Origin: a virus | Virus record (IMG/VR): IMGVR_UViG_3300047476_001680 | Location: 1 to 64,000 of that record | DNA: 64,000 bases | Reading direction: 5' to 3' (one strand) | Shown: in pieces, positions 3,516-12,962 of the stretch | Position numbering within the stretch: position 1 is the first letter of the stretch | Layout of the letters: each line of letters opens with the position of its first letter | Notes under the pieces: generated by a model | Databases searched by the model: none | The model's input: the letters and a program-made list of their open reading frames with translations, nothing else | Told to the model about the DNA's origin: nothing | Translations under genes and position numbers: made by a program

Positions 3516-3707
3516 ATGAAAGTATCTAACAAACTAAGCAAAGTAAGCGACAGTTACACTGTCAATATGTATGACAATGGGTTTATGGTGGAAATAAGCG
3601 GTCGCAACGAAGAAAATGACTGGGCTACAGCCAAAATTCTATGTGGCGATTTGAACGATGTTCTAGAGCTGGTCAAAGAAATCGCCGATATGCCACGTGA
3701 CAATTAA
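3516..3707 (+). CDS. Hypothetical protein
   Basis: Good SD and upstream promoter; 63 aa. Confidence 0.65.
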   Translation: MKVSNKLSKVSDSYTVNMYDNGFMVEISGRNEENDWATAKILCGDLNDVLELVKEIADMPRDN

Positions 3708-3720
3708 TTTTAGGAAAACG

Positions 3721-4401
3721 ATGAAACAACCTATCAGTGAAGAAATTAGAAAGCGTGTGGAAGCTGCTGGTGTGCGTTACCACAGCAACGACAACATTTC
3801 TGAATTTATTAAAGAAGGTGAACTAGAAGCACTGCAACAAGAGGTCGCCTACAAGATGGAAGATGTCCTGCAGAGTTTGGTCATTGATACTACACACGAT
3901 CATAACACGCAGGACACAGCCAATCGCGTGGCCAAGATGTTTATTCAGGAAACGTTCAGTGGTCGCTATCGTCCAGTGCCCAAGGTTACTGCCTTTCCCA
4001 ATATGGGATATAAGAGTCTGTACACCACTGGACCAATTACTATTCGCAGCACTTGTGCACATCACTTTCAGAATATCGTGGGTAAATGCTGGGTGGGTAT
4101 TGTTCCTGAAGACGAAGTCATTGGCCTGAGCAAGTTTAACCGCATAGTTCATCATATCTGCGAGCGTCCACAAATTCAGGAAGAAATGACCACGCAAATT
4201 GCAGAAGCATTAAAGAAGTATGCCAAGACTGAAAACATTGCAGTAGTGGTTAAAGCCGAGCATCACTGTATGACACATCGTGGTGTTCGTGAACACGAAA
4301 GTGATATGACCACTGCAATTATGCTGGGTAGATTCCTGGAAGATCCGGCTCTTAAGAAAGAGTTCTACGACATCTGTATGAGTATGAAGGGACATAACTA
4401 A
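3721..4401 (+). CDS. folE: GTP cyclohydrolase I
   Basis: TANRVAKMF, STCAHH, GLSKFNR, PQIQE and HHCMTHRG motifs. Confidence 0.95.
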   Translation: MKQPISEEIRKRVEAAGVRYHSNDNISEFIKEGELEALQQEVAYKMEDVLQSLVIDTTHDHNTQDTANRVAKMFIQETFSGRYRPVPKVTAFPNMGYKSLYTTGPITIRSTCAHHFQNIVGKCWVGIVPEDEVIGLSKFNRIVHHICERPQIQEEMTTQIAEALKKYAKTENIAVVVKAEHHCMTHRGVREHESDMTTAIMLGRFLEDPALKKEFYDICMSMKGHN

Positions 4402-5593: not shown

Positions 5594-8143
5594 ATGAAAA
5601 CTAAACAAACAAATTTAAGTATAATCTCGTTTTTGATTATGGCGCTGTTTTCCACTACTGCTTGCACTCAAACTCTTGGCGGCTTTACTAGATCCCCATT
5701 AAATGCGTCAATCACCAAATCTTCTGCAAGTTCCCCAGTAAACACTGCTCCCATAACGTCATTTACTCTAGCAAATTCTTTTAGTCCAGTAGATTCTACT
5801 AATAGATCATACGTTGTGCACGATTTATTCGCACGTGATTTAAACAAAGACAGAGTAGATGAGATTATATATGCAGGGCGTGTTTCTAATTATTCCGGGG
5901 CGATCTATGAAGAAGTAAATCTTAATATTTTTGGTTGGAACGTAAACAAGTCAAAATTAACCAATGAAACCACTCGTTGGTTCTCTCCCGGTGAAAATAA
6001 AATCAAAGGTACAGAACCCACTGTTTTATTTGGTAATTTTACTGGTGGTGGTACTGACATTTTCCTAGCACAAAGCACAGACAGACCTGACGAGAACACA
6101 ATGGGTCCGGCAGTTATTTTCAAGAACACTGGCAAAAACAAATTAACTAGAATAGAACTGCCCGGAACTACTTCTTGGTCACACGGCTCAGCCACGTTCG
6201 ACATTAATGGTGACGGAAAAATGGATATTATGGCTGTGAGCTATAATAACAATTCATTCACAGTGTTGGGTGGCGTCACCCCTAAAGTTTTCAGTGACGC
6301 TAACTCTAATTCCTCAGGGACTGACTCTCAGGGTCGTGCGGTTGCTGGAGTATTTGGTAGTGGCCTAACTATTGGCAAATTTCTCAATAACAATAAAGTC
6401 TACGCTATTGTGGCGGACAGTCCTTATATTGATGGTGTGCCAGGAAGCTGGGGGCGTGTGGCTATGATGGAAGTTTACGCTGGTTTTCATTATGAAAACG
6501 GTGTAAAAACTACCAAAGAGATTGCTGGTGTGATACCTTCTACTGCTAAACTATTACCATTACCTCACCTGGAGGCTGAGAAAGCTAGTAGTATGGGGAT
6601 GACTGAATTAGATTACATACAACGTGGAGATAGTAACATCAGCCACGATACCCGTGTTATCACACTAAAAGTTAATAATGATAAATTCTCTGACATTGCA
6701 GTTATCAGTCGTCCAAATGCGCCTGATAATAACTGGGGTGCAGTTAAAGGTGATAGTTATGTAACATTTTACAAAAACAATGGTGATGGTACTTTTAGTC
6801 GTGTAGGTCTTTTCTTTAAAGAAAATGCTCGTTTTTATAATGTAGAAACACGTGACATTAATGGTGACGGTAGAGCAGACCTAATTCTCAGTGCACAACA
6901 AGGTAATACATCTATCCTTATAGCTAAACAACAAAAAAATGGTGATATAGTTTATGTCGAAGCAGGTTCTAATGTCATCAAGGCTTTTGAAGATAAAATT
7001 CGAGCCAATACAGGAGGTGGATGCACAGAAACAGATAACTGGTGTGTGGGTGCGACAAATATTGTCCGCGGCCCTGGTGGTAAAAACTACGTAGTTGGTA
7101 TTCACAATGAGTACCCTATGACTGGGGGCCAAATTTCACATACTTACTACAGTATCATTGGCAACAAGGGAACACTGACACTCAATGGTGCAATACAAAC
7201 TCTTATGTCGCAGTGGAATCTCACTGAAAAACAAGCTACAGAAATTTTGAAGTTAACTGGCACAAACTATGCTGATGGCACTGTTATTAATATTGATGCT
7301 GCGATGCAGCCTGTCAGGGGTCTATGGTTTCCAATGAATGGCAAGATGGTAGCACTGCAAGGTGGTGTTTCGGGCATTGCACCCAATGAAGCTATCAAGA
7401 ATTTTACGGGTGTTGATTATTATAACCGTAATTTTAGTTTAGACATTGGGCAGAGATTAAGTTCTTCCGATTACTGGAGTCAACGATCCTATCAAGCCAT
7501 CAATCACGGGCTTGCTAGTATGCAATTACAGAATACTGATATAATTACTATTGGTAATTTCAAATTTAATAGTACTAACGATCCAATGGAAGGTGCTAAA
7601 TCTTGGGCGATGGGTGTAAGTGGTATCGCTATCAATGACAACACTGAAATGTCAATGAGTATTAGCAAGGTACCATTCAATCCTTGGTTCTCTATGTCAG
7701 GCACCTGGGGGCAGTTACAAAATTCTTCTATCATTGAAAGTAGTATATTACACACAACTGGCCCTTGGTCCTACCGTGGAGGTTTGATGCAAGTTACCAG
7801 TGAATATACACCTGGGTTGGTGACCGCAGTAAAACCAATCTATGCTGGCTGGGCTGATGTAGAGTATATGGTAAATGATAATTTAAAGGTTGCCACGGGT
7901 GTTCTTCCCTATGCATTTGCTGGCTCAGTGAGTATGACTTTACCCACTGGTATTGACAATCAAGGCCAATTCTCTTATACTAGTTCCAGTGCAAGTATCA
8001 AGGATACTATGCGCGGATATGCTCGGATTAACTACACTGGACTGGTTGAAAATCACAAAAATATATCATATAGTTTTACAGGCTTAATAACTGACCACGG
8101 TGTGCCAGCTGGTCGCGCAACGCTTAATTACAGCTTTAAATAA
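5594..8143 (+). CDS. Exported FG-GAP/VCBS-repeat protein with probable C-terminal beta-barrel
   Basis: Signal peptide, possibly lipoprotein type (TTAC). DLNKDRVDEI, DINGDGKMDI and DINGDGRADL loops. Ends LNYSFK. Confidence 0.7.
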   Translation: MKTKQTNLSIISFLIMALFSTTACTQTLGGFTRSPLNASITKSSASSPVNTAPITSFTLANSFSPVDSTNRSYVVHDLFARDLNKDRVDEIIYAGRVSNYSGAIYEEVNLNIFGWNVNKSKLTNETTRWFSPGENKIKGTEPTVLFGNFTGGGTDIFLAQSTDRPDENTMGPAVIFKNTGKNKLTRIELPGTTSWSHGSATFDINGDGKMDIMAVSYNNNSFTVLGGVTPKVFSDANSNSSGTDSQGRAVAGVFGSGLTIGKFLNNNKVYAIVADSPYIDGVPGSWGRVAMMEVYAGFHYENGVKTTKEIAGVIPSTAKLLPLPHLEAEKASSMGMTELDYIQRGDSNISHDTRVITLKVNNDKFSDIAVISRPNAPDNNWGAVKGDSYVTFYKNNGDGTFSRVGLFFKENARFYNVETRDINGDGRADLILSAQQGNTSILIAKQQKNGDIVYVEAGSNVIKAFEDKIRANTGGGCTETDNWCVGATNIVRGPGGKNYVVGIHNEYPMTGGQISHTYYSIIGNKGTLTLNGAIQTLMSQWNLTEKQATEILKLTGTNYADGTVINIDAAMQPVRGLWFPMNGKMVALQGGVSGIAPNEAIKNFTGVDYYNRNFSLDIGQRLSSSDYWSQRSYQAINHGLASMQLQNTDIITIGNFKFNSTNDPMEGAKSWAMGVSGIAINDNTEMSMSISKVPFNPWFSMSGTWGQLQNSSIIESSILHTTGPWSYRGGLMQVTSEYTPGLVTAVKPIYAGWADVEYMVNDNLKVATGVLPYAFAGSVSMTLPTGIDNQGQFSYTSSSASIKDTMRGYARINYTGLVENHKNISYSFTGLITDHGVPAGRATLNYSFK

Positions 8144-8147
8144 TAAA

Positions 8148-8672
8148 ATGAAAAAATTTATTTTAGATAACAACCAATTTAAATCGCTAGTGGCGGGTCT
8201 TGCAAGAGACATTACGCTGTCAGGCTGGCGACCAGATTATATTGTAGGGATCACAAGAGGCGGATTACTACCGGCTGTTATGCTTAGTCATTATTTTGAT
8301 ATACCTTGTGAAACCTTAAAGGTCAGTTTGCGTGATGGTGGTGAGCCCGAAAGTAATCTCTGGATGGCTGAAGATGCTTTTGGTTATGACCAGGGTAAGA
8401 GTGTTCCGCACCTCTGCAAAAATATCTTAGTAGTGGACGACATCAATGACAGTGGCGCAACCATTAACTGGATTATGGAGGACTGGCGGTCTGGGTGTAT
8501 GCCCAACGATGCTGCCTGGAACACAGTCTGGGGAAGGAATGTACGATTTGCGGTGCTGGTGGATAATACTGCTAGCCAATGCCAGACCTCAATGAGTTAT
8601 TTTGGTATGGAAGTTAACAAATCTGAAGAAGACGTTTGGATAGAATTTCCTTATGAAAAATGGTGGACTTAA
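8148..8672 (+). CDS. Type I phosphoribosyltransferase (Gpt-like)
   Basis: IVGITRGG and PRPP loop ILVVDDINDSGAT. Confidence 0.85.
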   Translation: MKKFILDNNQFKSLVAGLARDITLSGWRPDYIVGITRGGLLPAVMLSHYFDIPCETLKVSLRDGGEPESNLWMAEDAFGYDQGKSVPHLCKNILVVDDINDSGATINWIMEDWRSGCMPNDAAWNTVWGRNVRFAVLVDNTASQCQTSMSYFGMEVNKSEEDVWIEFPYEKWWT

Positions 8673-9195
8673 TTTAAGCATTTCTGTTTTCGGAAGTAAA
8701 GTAAATTCTTGGCCCACTCTCTTAATCAGTATCAATGATTGCATTGTCTATGATAAAGAAGTATCCGGGAGCAAAACAATATCTATCGATGTTGACGCAA
8801 TAAAAGTTTACAATATTAAAGTTTCTGGAATAGGGAAAAAGTTTGGTGAAGATGGCGTCTACGATACCATCGTTGACTCGCAGGGAAATATAATACAAGA
8901 TAAAAGTCTTATTATAACTGATATATCAGTAAATGGCATAGCTATGGATGATCACTGGATAAGATCTTTACCATTCTTCACTGATAATTTTACTAATTTT
9001 TCTGCAAAGGGATTCTATACTAACGGTGAATTAAGATTCAGTATTACTGAACCTGTATTAGACTGGGTCATTAATGAAAGATTTATTAAACATAAAACAC
9101 AAAATACACAAATATTTGGTGGTGGAGACAAGTTTGAATATACAGAAATATTAAATAAGATTGATCATATTAAAAAAACATACTTTAATGACTAA
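8653..9195 (+). CDS. Hypothetical protein coupled to a radical SAM gene
   Basis: 180-aa AT-rich ORF overlapping both neighbours. Confidence 0.6.
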   Translation: MKNGGLNLSISVFGSKVNSWPTLLISINDCIVYDKEVSGSKTISIDVDAIKVYNIKVSGIGKKFGEDGVYDTIVDSQGNIIQDKSLIITDISVNGIAMDDHWIRSLPFFTDNFTNFSAKGFYTNGELRFSITEPVLDWVINERFIKHKTQNTQIFGGGDKFEYTEILNKIDHIKKTYFND

Positions 9196-10678
9196 AACAC
9201 TAATATGCAATCTCCCACCGTTAGATAACACTAGGCCCCCACTCAGTGGGGCTATTTTGACAAGTATTTGTAAATCTCAAAGGCACGACGTCGTGGCAAG
9301 AGACGTCAACGTTGATCTAAGGAAATATCTACATATTAGGCAATTAGATTTATCTTTTTTTGATGACGTTTTTTATGAAATGTCTGACGATTACTCAGAA
9401 AATCAAAAAAAAGTTATTAATGAATTTTTACTTAATTACTTCGAGTATTTAAATGTCAAAGAATTTGATTACATAGTAGTCAGTCTTTTTTCTTTTCTTG
9501 CACAGTCATTTGCTAATATATTTTTGCCTGAACTACGTAAAGTATCTAAAGCAAAAATAATTATTGGTGGTGCTGGCCTCACTAAACTTGTAAGTGACCC
9601 TACTTATATAGGATATGGACAAGAATTAAAAAACAAAAATTTAATTGACGAATTTATTACCGGCGAAGCCGAAGAAGCATTGATACAATATTTTAGCACG
9701 GGCTCTGGCCCAGGAATAGGTAATTCAAATTTTATACAATTAGATGATCTGGATCGATACCCATTTCCTGACTACTCTGAGTACGATTTGTCAAATTACC
9801 GAACCCAAGATGGGTCGCTAGAGCTTAATATCATTGGTAGTCGTGGTTGTGTTCGCGACTGTACTTTTTGTGATGTAAGGAAAACTTCCCCCAAGTATAG
9901 ATTTAGATCAGGAAAAAACATTGCTGATGAAATTATTCATCATTATGAAAATTATGGTGTTACTGATTTTTATTTTGCTGATAGCCTAGTAAATGGTAGT
10001 TACAAAGCTTTTGATGATATGTGCAATGCACTAACAAATTATAAATTTCACAAACCAATATCTTGGTCTGGTCAATATATTATACGAACTAAAGAAACTA
10101 CACCCAAGAACCATTTTGATTTGTTAGCTGCGAGCGGTGCGAAAAATCTTTACGTAGGTATAGAATCAGGATGTGATAAAATAAGATTTGAAATTGGAAA
10201 AAAATTTACCAATAATGATATTGACTTTTATTTAGAAAACTTTTATAAACATAATATCAAGATACTATTTTTGTTTTTTACTGGGTACATTACAGAGACC
10301 CTTGATGATTACAAAGAAACCTTAAAAATGTTTCCACGTTGGCAAAAGTTTGTTGCATCTGGAACCATAATTGGTGTGGAAACTTTAAATTTGTTAAGTA
10401 TTTTACCTGGCACACACCTAGAATCACTGGCAATGAATAACAATTTTGTATTTAAACAAAATGATGATAATGGACATCTTAATACCAAATTTTGGATAGA
10501 CCCTGGTCAGCCCACTTATGACTATCTTGAAAGAGTAAAACGTCATCTAGGTGTTATGGAAGAAGCAATTAAGTACAAATGGCCAGTTTGGAACGCATCC
10601 ATTTCGTTAAACCTTATTGAACAAAGTTTAATTAGTTTTAACAATCCTAAAAATCGATATATTAAATTAAAAGGATAA
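9188..10678 (+). CDS. B12-binding-domain radical SAM protein
   Basis: IIIGG and GEAE in the N-domain; GSRGCVRDCTFC (CxxxCxxC); GIESG. Confidence 0.85.
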   Translation: MTKTLICNLPPLDNTRPPLSGAILTSICKSQRHDVVARDVNVDLRKYLHIRQLDLSFFDDVFYEMSDDYSENQKKVINEFLLNYFEYLNVKEFDYIVVSLFSFLAQSFANIFLPELRKVSKAKIIIGGAGLTKLVSDPTYIGYGQELKNKNLIDEFITGEAEEALIQYFSTGSGPGIGNSNFIQLDDLDRYPFPDYSEYDLSNYRTQDGSLELNIIGSRGCVRDCTFCDVRKTSPKYRFRSGKNIADEIIHHYENYGVTDFYFADSLVNGSYKAFDDMCNALTNYKFHKPISWSGQYIIRTKETTPKNHFDLLAASGAKNLYVGIESGCDKIRFEIGKKFTNNDIDFYLENFYKHNIKILFLFFTGYITETLDDYKETLKMFPRWQKFVASGTIIGVETLNLLSILPGTHLESLAMNNNFVFKQNDDNGHLNTKFWIDPGQPTYDYLERVKRHLGVMEEAIKYKWPVWNASISLNLIEQSLISFNNPKNRYIKLKG

Positions 10679-10681
10679 AGT

Positions 10682-11023
10682 ATGATAGCATTGCCACCTG
10701 GTGTGAAACTTAATTTCAGCATCTATATTGATGTGCAAAATCTCACTCAAGATATGATAGAGTGGTATCGCACTGTGGGTGGTGAAGTATCCCAGGACAC
10801 TGTCTACGATCATCGTGGCAGGCAATTAGATACAACCTATGTTAAGTACGGTCGTGGTAAACGTAGCTATAAATATACTAATTCCACACAGACAAAATTG
10901 CATTTTAATGGTGAGGACGCCTCGGTGGCCAGTCTTTTTGTTCTCAAATATCTAGACTTGATTATAAACACCAACTTGCAGGAACAAATGGAAAGATTTG
11001 AACGAGAGGATGCGATTAATTGA
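10682..11023 (+). CDS. Hypothetical protein
   Basis: AAGGA SD; 113 aa. Confidence 0.6.
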   Translation: MIALPPGVKLNFSIYIDVQNLTQDMIEWYRTVGGEVSQDTVYDHRGRQLDTTYVKYGRGKRSYKYTNSTQTKLHFNGEDASVASLFVLKYLDLIINTNLQEQMERFEREDAIN

Positions 11024-11310
11024 ACGACATACTAGCAGATATTTTTAAATGGATTAAAAGTGACTTTAATTCTTACCGTTTTCGTTTTATTGTTGAGCTT
11101 TTGGCTTGGGCTATCTCTATTTGTTGCAGTGTCACGATGGCACTCACTGTACCTAACCCGCCTCTACTTGTCCTATATCCTATTTGGATTTGTGGTTGTG
11201 CTATGTATTCGTGGGCTGCTTGGACTCGTAGGAGTTTTGGAATGCTTGCCAATTACCTACTGCTCGTGACAATTGACACTATTGGCTTGATGCGAATGCT
11301 ACTAAACTAA
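11020..11310 (+). CDS. Small membrane protein (about 3 TM)
   Basis: Three hydrophobic segments; GAGGA SD with TTG start. Confidence 0.6.
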   Translation: MNDILADIFKWIKSDFNSYRFRFIVELLAWAISICCSVTMALTVPNPPLLVLYPIWICGCAMYSWAAWTRRSFGMLANYLLLVTIDTIGLMRMLLN

Positions 11311-11313
11311 ATA
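11307..11313 (+). promoter_or_regulatory. Candidate late promoter CTAAATA
   Basis: TAAATA core just upstream of the structured queD leader. Confidence 0.4.
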
Positions 11314-11324
11314 ATATTCTACAC

Positions 11325-11393
11325 AGCGGCCTTCCTGGCTCTTCATCCCGCTTTACAAATTCTGCAGGCCTATGTTAACATTTAATATAGGAG
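11325..11393 (+). ncRNA. Candidate cis-regulatory RNA leader of queD
   Basis: AGCGG/CCGCT stem; alternative GGCCT/AGGCC pairing; 10-bp hairpin CCTATGTTAA-cat-TTAATATAGG covering AGG of the AGGAG SD. Confidence 0.45.
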
Positions 11394-11399
11394 AAGATA

Positions 11400-11918
11400 A
11401 TGTTATACCTTAAAGAAACTAACCCCCCAAGAACTTATAAATTTGTAAGTACTAAAGAATACCACGACGCTTTTCCCTGTGCCTACAGGCAATGGCGTGC
11501 AGATAGTCACTGTAACCTAATCCACGGTTATAGTTTTAGTATGAAGTTTTACTTTGGTACTGATAGTCTAGATGTGCGCAACTGGGCTGCTGATTATGGC
11601 GGCCTAAAAGAACTTAAAAAGGTACTAGAAGATCAATTCGATCACACTTTACTAGTGGCACAAGATGATCCAGAACTGGAAACATTTAAAATGCTACAAG
11701 AACGTAAAATGGCTAAGTTAACCATCCTACCCAGATTGGGCTGTGAGGGTTTAGCCGATATGCTTTACAAATATGTCAATGGTGTGTATATTCCTGATAT
11801 GTGGGGGCCGGGCGAAGCAGAACGTCTCTGGTGCTTCCGTGTGGAAGTTCGTGAAACTCAGGCTAATATGGCGTTCCGTGAAGGCCATCGTGAATGGGAC
11901 GAAGATCTATTTGCGTGA
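11400..11918 (+). CDS. queD: 6-carboxy-tetrahydropterin synthase
   Basis: HCNLIHGYS, DYGGLK, FDHTLL, GCEGLA and VEVRET motifs. Confidence 0.85.
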   Translation: MLYLKETNPPRTYKFVSTKEYHDAFPCAYRQWRADSHCNLIHGYSFSMKFYFGTDSLDVRNWAADYGGLKELKKVLEDQFDHTLLVAQDDPELETFKMLQERKMAKLTILPRLGCEGLADMLYKYVNGVYIPDMWGPGEAERLWCFRVEVRETQANMAFREGHREWDEDLFA

Positions 11919-11928
11919 TTGATTTTTT

Positions 11929-12117
11929 ATGAAAACTCGAGAACAAATCATCACTGATATGTGTTACACTTATCGCCACGATTACGGTCTTGACAAGACC
12001 AATGATACTGGTATATTTTCTTCAGGCACTACTGAAGAAGAACGAAGATGGCTCTGGGCAGTGATGGCGCAGATTTTCGACAACAACATAGCACCACATA
12101 TGGAATTCAAAAAATGA
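11929..12117 (+). CDS. Hypothetical protein
   Basis: 62-aa ORF between queD and queE, ATGA overlap. Confidence 0.55.
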   Translation: MKTREQIITDMCYTYRHDYGLDKTNDTGIFSSGTTEEERRWLWAVMAQIFDNNIAPHMEFKK

Positions 12118-12962
12118 GTAAATTAAAAGTAGCAGAACTATTCTACAGTATACAAGGAGAAGGACGCTTTATGGGTGTTCCTTCTATTTTCTTACGTACA
12201 TTCGGTTGTAACTTTACCTGTGCAGGCTTTGGTATGCCACGTGGAGAGCGTAGTACAGCTAATGACCAAGTAGCACAAGAAATCAATAAGTTCGAGAAAT
12301 ATGAAGACCTTCCAGTAGTGTCAACTGGTTGCGATAGCTATGCCAGCTGGGACGCTAGATTTAAGGATCTTAGTCCTGTACTAACAGTGGATGCCATTGC
12401 TGATAGGATGATGGAAATACTTCCTGATAACAAATGGCGAGGTGTTCATTTGGTTATTACTGGCGGCGAGCCTCTACTGGGCTGGCAGCGTAGCTATCCA
12501 GACTTGTTAAATCACGAAAAGCTTAAAAAGTTAAAAGATCTAACATTTGAGACCAATGGTACTCAAGAACTCACTAAGGATTTTAAACTATATCTTTATA
12601 AATGGACACACAAACAAGGTTATCATAATTTAACATTCAGTGTTAGTCCTAAATTAAGTGTCAGTGGAGAAAAGAGAGAAGATGCTATTCGTCCGGACAT
12701 TGTTCGCGAGTACGAAGACCTAGGCCATACATACTTAAAATTTGTTGTGGCAACGGAAGATGATGTCACAGAAGCACTGGAAGTGATTGACATATACAAG
12801 AAAGAAGGGTTTAGTGGACACGTCTATCTGATGCCCGTGGGTGGTGTGGAAAGTGTGTATACTCTAAATAATCGAAGAGTAGCAGAACTAGCAATGAAAC
12901 ACGGACTACGATACTCCGACAGGCTGCAGGTTCCATTGTTTAAAAACGCCTGGGGGACCTAA
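12114..12962 (+). CDS. queE: 7-carboxy-7-deazaguanine synthase (radical SAM)
   Basis: ELFYSIQGEG, FLRTFGCNFTC...CDS, ITGGEP, ETNGT and SVSPK motifs. Confidence 0.9.
   Translation: MSKLKVAELFYSIQGEGRFMGVPSIFLRTFGCNFTCAGFGMPRGERSTANDQVAQEINKFEKYEDLPVVSTGCDSYASWDARFKDLSPVLTVDAIADRMMEILPDNKWRGVHLVITGGEPLLGWQRSYPDLLNHEKLKKLKDLTFETNGTQELTKDFKLYLYKWTHKQGYHNLTFSVSPKLSVSGEKREDAIRPDIVREYEDLGHTYLKFVVATEDDVTEALEVIDIYKKEGFSGHVYLMPVGGVESVYTLNNRRVAELAMKHGLRYSDRLQVPLFKNAWGT

Follow-up and report, generated by a model that had tools for sequence, protein, structure and literature searches.

Candidate translational ON riboswitch with a pseudoknot aptamer in the leader of a phage queD gene

The virus record IMGVR_UViG_3300047476_001680 of IMG/VR comprises 88,750 bp, of which the first 64 kb were analysed and are called the window here. 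In this window a queD-like gene (11400-11918) is preceded by an 89-nt gap, which lies between the stop of a 96-aa open reading frame (ORF; 11020-11310) and the ATG at 11400. An earlier note had taken the gap for a structured leader, and a candidate riboswitch, in an otherwise tightly packed operon; the gap is real, but another one of 129 nt (11919-12047) follows queD. What does this leader do, and if it is a switch, in which direction does it act on queD? Comparison with related phage contigs points to a small pseudoknot aptamer in the 5′ untranslated region (5′ UTR) of queD that would act as a translational ON riboswitch, a reading to which a probability of roughly 0.6 is assigned.

Conserved pseudoknot in the leader

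Two samples of relatives were collected. When viral contigs were scanned with QueD, 600 stretches matched, of which 593 encode a QueD relative; the best 80 of these were kept and gave, together with the window copy, alignment A1 of 63 distinct leaders with a mean column identity of 68 % (one locus, L055, was excluded because its leader was cut off). Covariance model R1 was built from A1 by using P1 as the only structure. The second sample was selected by a DNA pattern alone, in which CATCCC and TCTGC are fixed; at least 120 viral stretches matched, and 79 of the 80 loci listed scored at least 40.5 bits with R1. The remaining locus (L338) is a chance match to the pattern and has no P1. Pooling of both samples yielded 160 instances from 162 loci, which represent 99 distinct aptamers. 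One of these (L297), which carries a G.G mismatch in P1, was left out of the counts of P2 register, downstream ORF, platform and flanks, so that 98 distinct aptamers remained. They were split by tail length into alignments A2 and A3 (49 + 49), each aligned with MAFFT and not fitted to a structure; the pseudoknot annotation was supplied for the pairing counts. The parts of the leader are as follows.

11325-11329, plus strand: 5′ strand of P1, AGCGG, pairing with 11348-11352
11330-11336, plus strand: loop L1, CCUUCCU, starting with a conserved YCU; A1, A2 and A3 all have an invariant C at the second loop position
11337-11342, plus strand: 5′ strand of P2, GGCUCU, with two possible registers
11343-11347, plus strand: loop L2, UCAUC, ending in the invariant C11347 that adjoins the 3′ strand of P1
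11348-11352, plus strand: 3′ strand of P1, CCGCU; pairing 99.7 % in A1, 100 % in A2 and 99.6 % in A3
11353-11365, plus strand: loop L3, UUACAAAUUCUGC, a strongly conserved single strand of 13 nt
11366-11370, plus strand: 3′ strand of P2, AGGCC; the SD hairpin also uses C11369 and C11370
11369-11391, plus strand: sequestering hairpin, the putative OFF state, -8.7 kcal/mol, with its 3′ arm over AGG of the SD
11389-11393, plus strand: Shine-Dalgarno (SD) sequence AGGAG, 6 nt upstream of the ATG
11400-11918, plus strand: QueD/PTPS-family protein of 172 aa, the presumed regulated gene; PF01242 (E = 7.3e-15), phrog_2389 "QueD-like" (E = 4e-37)

The stem AGCGG/CCGCT proposed in the earlier note is present around a pyrimidine-rich loop of 18 nt, and related phage contigs preserve both it (P1) and the SD hairpin through compensatory changes. 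In A1, pairing in P1 reaches 99.7 % over 58 distinct rows, and three of its five pairs show compensatory exchanges (AU to UA in one row, GC to CG in seven, CG to UA or AU in four). The observed pairing or covariation score was attained by none of 500 shuffles, and partners slid out of register were 39.7-58.3 % paired. Among the 99 distinct aptamers P1 is mostly AGCGG/CCGCU (78), followed by ACCGG/CCGGU (10), AGUGG/CCACU (4) and AGAGG/CCUCU (3); UGCGG/CCGCA, AUCGG/CCGAU, UGCGG/CCGCU (with a U.U mismatch) and the G.G variant of L297 occur once each.

The loops are conserved as well. The loop of P1 starts with UCU in 43, CCU in 42 and ACU in 13 of the 99 distinct aptamers. The C preceding the 3′ strand of P1 is invariant in A1, a sample selected by QueD in which this base was not forced by a pattern; UCAUC is found in 86 of the 99, a figure that is partly forced by the pattern. 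In A1, seven of the 13 positions of L3 (consensus WUAMAAAYUCYGC) are invariant and three more are conserved to at least 90 %. Judged from these alignments, the conservation of YCU in L1, of C11347 and of L3 is greater than a bare pseudoknot would need.

The second helix, P2, joins the loop of P1 to the tail. The loop bases directly 5′ of UCAUC are complementary to the four to five bases that follow CYGC in the tail, and both sides co-vary: the variants include GGCAU/AUGCC, GACAU/AUGUC, GACGC/GUGUC, GGCG/CGCC, GGCA/UGCC and GGGC/GUCC. In the window, P2 can form in a first register of 4 bp (11337-11340 with 11367-11370; GC, GC, CG, UG) or in the register of the family (11338-11342 with 11366-11370), in which four of five positions pair and one is a C.C mismatch. 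P2 is 85.2 % paired in A2, with compensatory changes in three of five pairs (GC/AU 15 cells, UA/CG 8, AU/UA/CG 6), and 79.6 % paired in A3, with compensatory changes in two of four pairs. The full structure is 92.6 % paired in A2 (slid partners 32-54 %; attained by 0/500 shuffles) and 90.7 % in A3 (slid partners 40-63 %).

Counts anchored to the register agree with this. Over the 98 distinct aptamers the first pair of P2 is formed in 98 % (UA 38, AU 28, GC 17, CG 11), and the mean contiguous helix is 3.31 pairs against 2.06 ± 0.13 with shuffled tails, a value reached in 0/2000 shuffles. An earlier anchored test with 37 loop/tail combinations gave 138 against 108.5 ± 5.0 (0/5000). An unanchored search was noisy (cis mean 4.15 against 3.85 shuffled, reached in 1/2000), with spurious UUU/AAG helices, and was replaced by the register-anchored count. 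Covariation analysis of leaders upstream of phage queD homologues, which the earlier note had named as a check, has thus returned compensatory changes in P1, P2 and the SD hairpin.

A different competitor had been proposed there, namely GGCCT (11328-11332) pairing with AGGCC (11366-11370) at the expense of P1. The two strands are complementary in the window, but the pairing is not conserved: full complementarity is found in 2/98 distinct aptamers, which rules it out as a conserved switch. On the comparative evidence, the conserved competitor is the pseudoknot helix between 11337-11342 of the P1 loop and 11366-11370.

The motif is linked to QueD. Of 159 instances, 153 have a QueD-like ORF as the next one downstream; in about 20 of them it is only 30-40 % identical to the QueD of the window. 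Three of the six exceptions have a similar arrangement: in L039 and L076 another gene stands between motif and QueD, and L298 is similarly arranged. L298 further carries a second, degenerate motif (26 bits; P1 ACCAG/CUGGU) at 1-60, ahead of a 309-aa gene (68-997) resembling S-adenosylmethionine (SAM)-dependent methyltransferases and, beyond it, the normal motif with QueD. In L039 and L342 the first ORF after the motif is likewise methyltransferase-like, located in L039 between motif and QueD.

With R1 and filters off, the window holds one copy of the motif (69.3 bits; next best 11 bits) and no second copy in its 64 kb; the 205-nt space before folE is taken up by a small ORF, unlisted so far, with its own SD (3517-3708, between a glycosyltransferase-like gene and folE). 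One strong copy per record is likewise found in five related records, three of them complete at about 360 kb, and one relative has a further weak match of 13.4 bits.

Bacterial and archaeal genomes of 185,579 species were searched with two pattern scans scored with R1. A 14-base pattern matched at least 120 stretches, and the best score among the 80 matches listed was 21.5 bits. A 17-base pattern matched 85 stretches, near the chance expectation; among the 80 matches listed, only L283 is real (53 bits; next best 25 bits). L283 is an 8-kb contig binned with a metagenome-assembled genome of Chitinophagales and carries a type B leader (see below) with QueD; it looks like a phage fragment and is at most a weak hint at a Bacteroidota host. 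Among the matches listed, the motif is essentially restricted to phage contigs. A blastn search of 10600-12200 against the phage GenBank collection gave no match.

Ribosome-binding site, transcript start and direction of switching

The hairpin described in the earlier note was recovered as such: ten base pairs (11369-11378 with 11382-11391, one of them G-U) around a loop of 3 nt, covering A11389-G11391 of the SD. The same task would be performed in relatives by helices of different sequence. In type A platforms, to which the window belongs, CCUAUG.../...CAUAGG lies over the SD; in type B, (U)GUCAUC/GAUGGC(A) lies over the AUG; in type C, AUGUCU/AGACAU lies over the 3′ part of the SD. Longer helices covering the AUG are found in L041 and L068. 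In minimum free energy (MFE) folds of 120 distinct platforms, at least two of the first five tail bases, that is, of the 3′ strand of P2, were paired downstream in all 120; their partner was in the SD in 84 and in the AUG in 31, and in five the helix spanned the ribosome-binding site (RBS). All three architectures thus obey the rule that the 3′ strand of P2 is the anti-RBS arm. Because this strand is common to both helices, no member of the family can form P2 and the RBS-sequestering helix at the same time.

The calculated energies in the window are -4.9 kcal/mol for P1, -8.7 kcal/mol for the hairpin and at best -4.2 kcal/mol for the P2 duplex; P1 is compatible with both alternatives. Since the hairpin is much stronger than P2, the default state would be OFF. 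A pseudoknot that takes the 5′ arm of the hairpin would therefore free the ribosome site, and on these folding models we infer an ON switch.

The proposed mechanism has the following steps. The leader RNA would fold into a small H-type pseudoknot composed of P1 (11325-11329/11348-11352) and P2 (11337-11342/11366-11370). By default, the more stable hairpin at 11369-11391 would cover the SD and keep translation off. Stabilisation of the pseudoknot would come most likely from a small ligand whose guanine-like face is read by C11347. Stabilised P2 would then remove the two Cs that anchor the hairpin, the SD would be freed and QueD would be made.

Promoter-like sequences near the leader bear on whether it is transcribed as a 5′ UTR.

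11287-11315, plus strand: sigma-70-like promoter candidate TTGATG-17-AATAAT, 9/12 in a consensus scan; the start would fall a few bases before P1
11308-11313, plus strand: TAAATA box, 11 nt before P1, overlapping the stop of the upstream ORF
11352-11381, plus strand: nested promoter-like match TTTACA-18-TAACAT with TG, 9/12; overlaps L3, P2 and the hairpin loop

A promoter with at least 9/12 matches was found upstream of P1 in 13 % of 133 distinct flanks against 3 % of shuffles, and three relatives have a perfect TTGACA-16/18-TATAAT (12/12) there. The box TAA[AG]TA occurs within 30 nt before P1 in 103 of the 133 flanks against 9 % of shuffles; despite the different upstream genes of the relatives, its end mostly falls 5-11 nt short of P1. 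This arrangement fits a putative position of the aptamer at the extreme 5′ end of its own transcript. An intrinsic terminator at P1 was considered and rejected; P1 has no U-tract and is absent from the predicted terminator-like sites.

What generally marks a riboswitch, a conserved and covarying aptamer with a mutually exclusive expression platform, is found here, and the upstream promoter-like boxes suggest that it lies in a 5′ UTR. Of the switch first proposed, the conserved and covarying leader with two exclusive folds, one of them hiding the RBS, has stood; the switching partner is a different one, and the wiring would be the reverse of that in known preQ1 riboswitches.

Several points weigh against an ON riboswitch. 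For 11305-11420 the MFE amounts to -19.5 kcal/mol (z = -1.14), and 24/200 shuffles fold equally well; from the single sequence the structure is not above chance, and it is the comparison that makes the element real. The P2 of the window is short (4 bp including G-U, or 4/5 with C.C), and in 28/98 distinct aptamers the helix that starts at the first tail base has fewer than three contiguous pairs; the majority of these aptamers fall into two groups, GGCAU/AAGCC with an A.A mismatch inside the helix and GGACA/UGCC with a bulge. P1 is mismatched in two relatives, L297 (G.G) and L049 (U.U). The L2 and L3 conservation figures of the second sample are inflated because its pattern fixes parts of both loops. 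Platforms with shuffled interiors keep the CC/GG contact in 1181/2400 trials (49 %). The promoter-like TGnTAnnnT, located in the hairpin loop no more than 30 nt after CYGC, recurs in 98/126 distinct leaders, none of them of type B or C; some of the conservation could therefore reflect a role of the DNA itself, and transcripts from a nested promoter would escape the switch. The contigs of one RNA-library run (X20, share 0.14) do not cover the leader; they amount to a single, identical contig of 258 nt over 11839-12096, and such contigs show no transcript starts and may stem from DNA carry-over. Finally, an ON switch for an end-product-like 7-deazapurine would make no obvious regulatory sense.

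Alternative explanations and known riboswitches

A structured leader that works without a ligand is the strongest of the alternatives, if still an unlikely one. A protein of phage or host, the temperature or simply the order in which the RNA folds during transcription would then decide between the two folds, or the pseudoknot would be a fixed translational enhancer. All evidence for the element concerns structure, which counts for this explanation. H-type pseudoknots with conserved loops occur also without ligands, and RNA thermometers are AU-rich, as is the type A hairpin. Set against this, ten of the 13 positions of L3, YCU of L1 and the C before the 3′ strand of P1 are conserved well beyond the needs of pairing, and in 153/159 instances the motif accompanies a single family of metabolic genes. 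The corresponding positions make ligand contacts in preQ1 class I riboswitches (preQ1-I), as described in PMC11625349.

The likeness to preQ1-I raises a second alternative, namely that the leader is a divergent but true member of this class, missed by the Rfam model (RF00522), that binds preQ1 or preQ0 and perhaps acts as an OFF switch through an unseen contact. Both are H-type pseudoknots in the 5′ UTR of genes of the 7-deazaguanine pathway, with a 5-bp P1 of the same pattern: aGuGG/CCaCu in RF00522 and AGCGG/CCGCU in the phage motif, or AGUGG/CCACU in some relatives. The RF00522 consensus has a 12-nt loop ending in UC and the tail AUAAAAAAC, given also as AUAAAAAACUAAGg; the loop of the phage motif likewise ends in UC, and its tail is WUACAAA. 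P1 (AGNGG/CCNCU), the UC before its 3′ strand and the start of the tail (AUA.AAA) agree with that consensus. According to PMC11625349, preQ1-I is an H-type pseudoknot in which UC or AC, its C pairing with the ligand, precedes the 3′ strand of P1; L3 is A-rich and occupies the minor groove of P1, and P2 contains SD bases. The UC motif, the pseudoknot and the A-rich L3 of the phage element match the type I features of that account, the base before the 3′ strand of P1 being C throughout and mostly part of UC. In both, the A-rich strand after P1 goes on to pair with the P1 loop; the L3 of the phage element consists of WUAMAAA followed by the non-A block YUCYGC.

Other features speak against membership. 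In line with the earlier note, which could find no match to preQ1 classes I-III by eye, scans with Rfam 15 (cmscan, E ≤ 10) gave no family on the 94-nt leader, in 2 kb around the gap or on the leaders of ten diverse relatives. What passed the E threshold in or near the leader were chance matches of 11-21 bits, none of them to a riboswitch such as preQ1-II or preQ1-III. RF00522, with a gathering score of 39 bits, likewise gave no leader match at E ≤ 10 on the 94-nt leader, the 2 kb around it, the 88.7-kb record or the ten relatives. Its one candidate, at 69535-69576 on the minus strand and thus outside the window, is judged to be a chance match of 17.2 bits, with a broken stem and a position within a 654-aa ORF.

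The wiring differs too. The SD lies outside P2, about 20 nt downstream of it, and the 3′ strand of P2 is an anti-SD or anti-AUG, which predicts ON and not OFF. Apart from P1, the elements are longer than in the Rfam consensus: L1 has about 5-9 nt against 2-3, P2 has 4-7 bp and L3 has 13 nt. The motif is found only in phage contigs among the matches examined, and no QueC above the cut-off was found in the record or in three complete relatives, so that preQ0 and preQ1 are probably not made there. By analogy, the element would work like a preQ1-I pseudoknot; by model score and by wiring it is not a member of the class, and true membership is considered quite improbable.

Least credible is an element that acts in DNA, a promoter (-35 TTTACA, -10 TAACAT/TATAAT with TG) combined with a weak terminator of the preceding gene and no RNA switch: the nested match in the window, TGnTAnnnT in its 98/126 distinct leaders and UUU or AUA directly after P1 agree with it, but it leaves unexplained the compensatory changes within P1 as well as those that link its loop to the supposed spacer, the 28/126 leaders of types B and C keep P1, P2 and the RBS-sequestering helix without a -10-like box, P1 is no terminator as judged above, and a separate promoter-like box lies upstream of P1.

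Among riboswitches known from phages, glnA RNA (glutamine) riboswitches have been reported in Melnitz-like phages and pelagiphages (PMC9004378). They are likewise phage-borne and, in the account given there, thought to control the phage's own genes. They belong, however, to a known bacterial class that is found by standard scanners, and they differ in fold, ligand and target gene; for the queD-leader motif, no bacterial counterpart came up among the matches listed from the bacterial genomes. Full-text searching of the literature found no description of the motif and no paper combining "riboswitch" with "dpdA"; supplementary files may hold more. The main text of a survey of 224 motifs (PMC5737381) contains no queD, queE or deazaguanine.

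Gene neighbourhood, candidate ligands and implications

The gene 3′ of the gap, called queD in the earlier note and part of a phage 7-deazaguanine cluster, belongs to the QueD family by its matches to PF01242 and phrog_2389. At the QueD signature, quoted as CxxxHGH by Cui et al. 2023 (PMC10516641), its protein has CNLIHGY, with Tyr in place of the second zinc-binding His. The following genes accompany it.

1025-1453: second QueD paralogue, a 142-aa ORF with LSHPHRHIF; phrog_17812 (unknown function)
3697-4401: GTP cyclohydrolase I (FolE), upstream of queD
8100-8672: xanthine/guanine-type phosphoribosyltransferase, within the deazaguanine cluster
9161-10678: B12-binding radical-SAM (methyltransferase-like) protein of 505 aa, within the deazaguanine cluster
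12048-12962: QueE-like radical SAM protein, downstream of queD

The sequence LSHPHRHIF of the paralogue fits LxxxHRHxF, the signature given for DpdL, a proposed decarboxylase of 7-carboxy-7-deazaguanine (CDG; Cui et al. 2023, PMC10516641). Because of this DpdL-like signature and the absence of a detectable QueC, the cluster points to a 7-deazaguanine modification of DNA, of the 2′-deoxy-7-deazaguanine (dDG) type, and the phage probably makes 7-deazaguanine without QueC. Nor did the record or the three complete relatives give a match to the Pfam TGT model, for which DpdA may be too divergent. A comparable set is known from Cellulophaga phage phiST, whose QueC-less dDG pathway includes DpdL (PMC10516641); the window shares with it FolE, a QueD-like and a QueE-like protein, the paralogue with the DpdL signature and the lack of QueC. 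An RNA element is not part of the phiST system as described there, and the main text of that paper does not contain "riboswitch", "promoter" or "regulat".

The 129-nt spacer between queD and queE has signals of its own. A terminator-like hairpin (11889-11915) lies at the queD end, and a promoter candidate, TTGACA-16-TATATT with TG (11990-12017), has 11/12 consensus matches. With a near-consensus promoter in this place, queE may be transcribed separately, and the switch may control queD alone.

The record is 25 % complete according to CheckV. Since the complete relatives that share the queD leader, one of them with terminal repeats, have about 360 kb, the phage of the window is a jumbo phage. 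The sequencing runs that contain this lake phage are freshwater metagenomes. In three DNA runs (X2, X3 and X5), the bin 11327-11383 has a summed contig depth of 37.6, 205.3 and 52.6, most neighbouring bins having about 3-37; this is a rough sign that many co-occurring phage strains may be more alike in the leader than in the flanking genes.

Which ligand might the aptamer bind? The invariant C before the 3′ strand of P1 suggests, by analogy to preQ1-I, a guanine-like Watson-Crick face. preQ1 is not an obvious signal, because 7-deazaguanine synthesis in this phage probably does without QueC. For a switch with ON logic, a signal from the substrate side or a by-product would be more sensible than the end product. 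Candidates are guanine, released by the base swap of DpdA in DNA, CDG or 7-deazaguanine, and a pterin substrate or intermediate. The fuller proposal, of a phage-only riboswitch class that is derived from, or convergent with, the preQ1-I fold, has inverted its logic, senses a guanine-like base and switches QueD on, is put forward tentatively, at somewhat less than even odds.

With about 46 nt and a simple translational platform, the aptamer can easily be tested and might find use as an ON switch of small size. Phages rarely carry riboswitches, and the cases reported are copies of bacterial classes (PMC9004378). If the proposal is true, the queD leader would represent a class known only from phages that controls an anti-restriction pathway of DNA modification, and the smallest known riboswitch fold would have changed its wiring from OFF to ON, with a ligand that is probably new. 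The phage would then time or scale the hypermodification of its DNA to the supply of substrate during infection.

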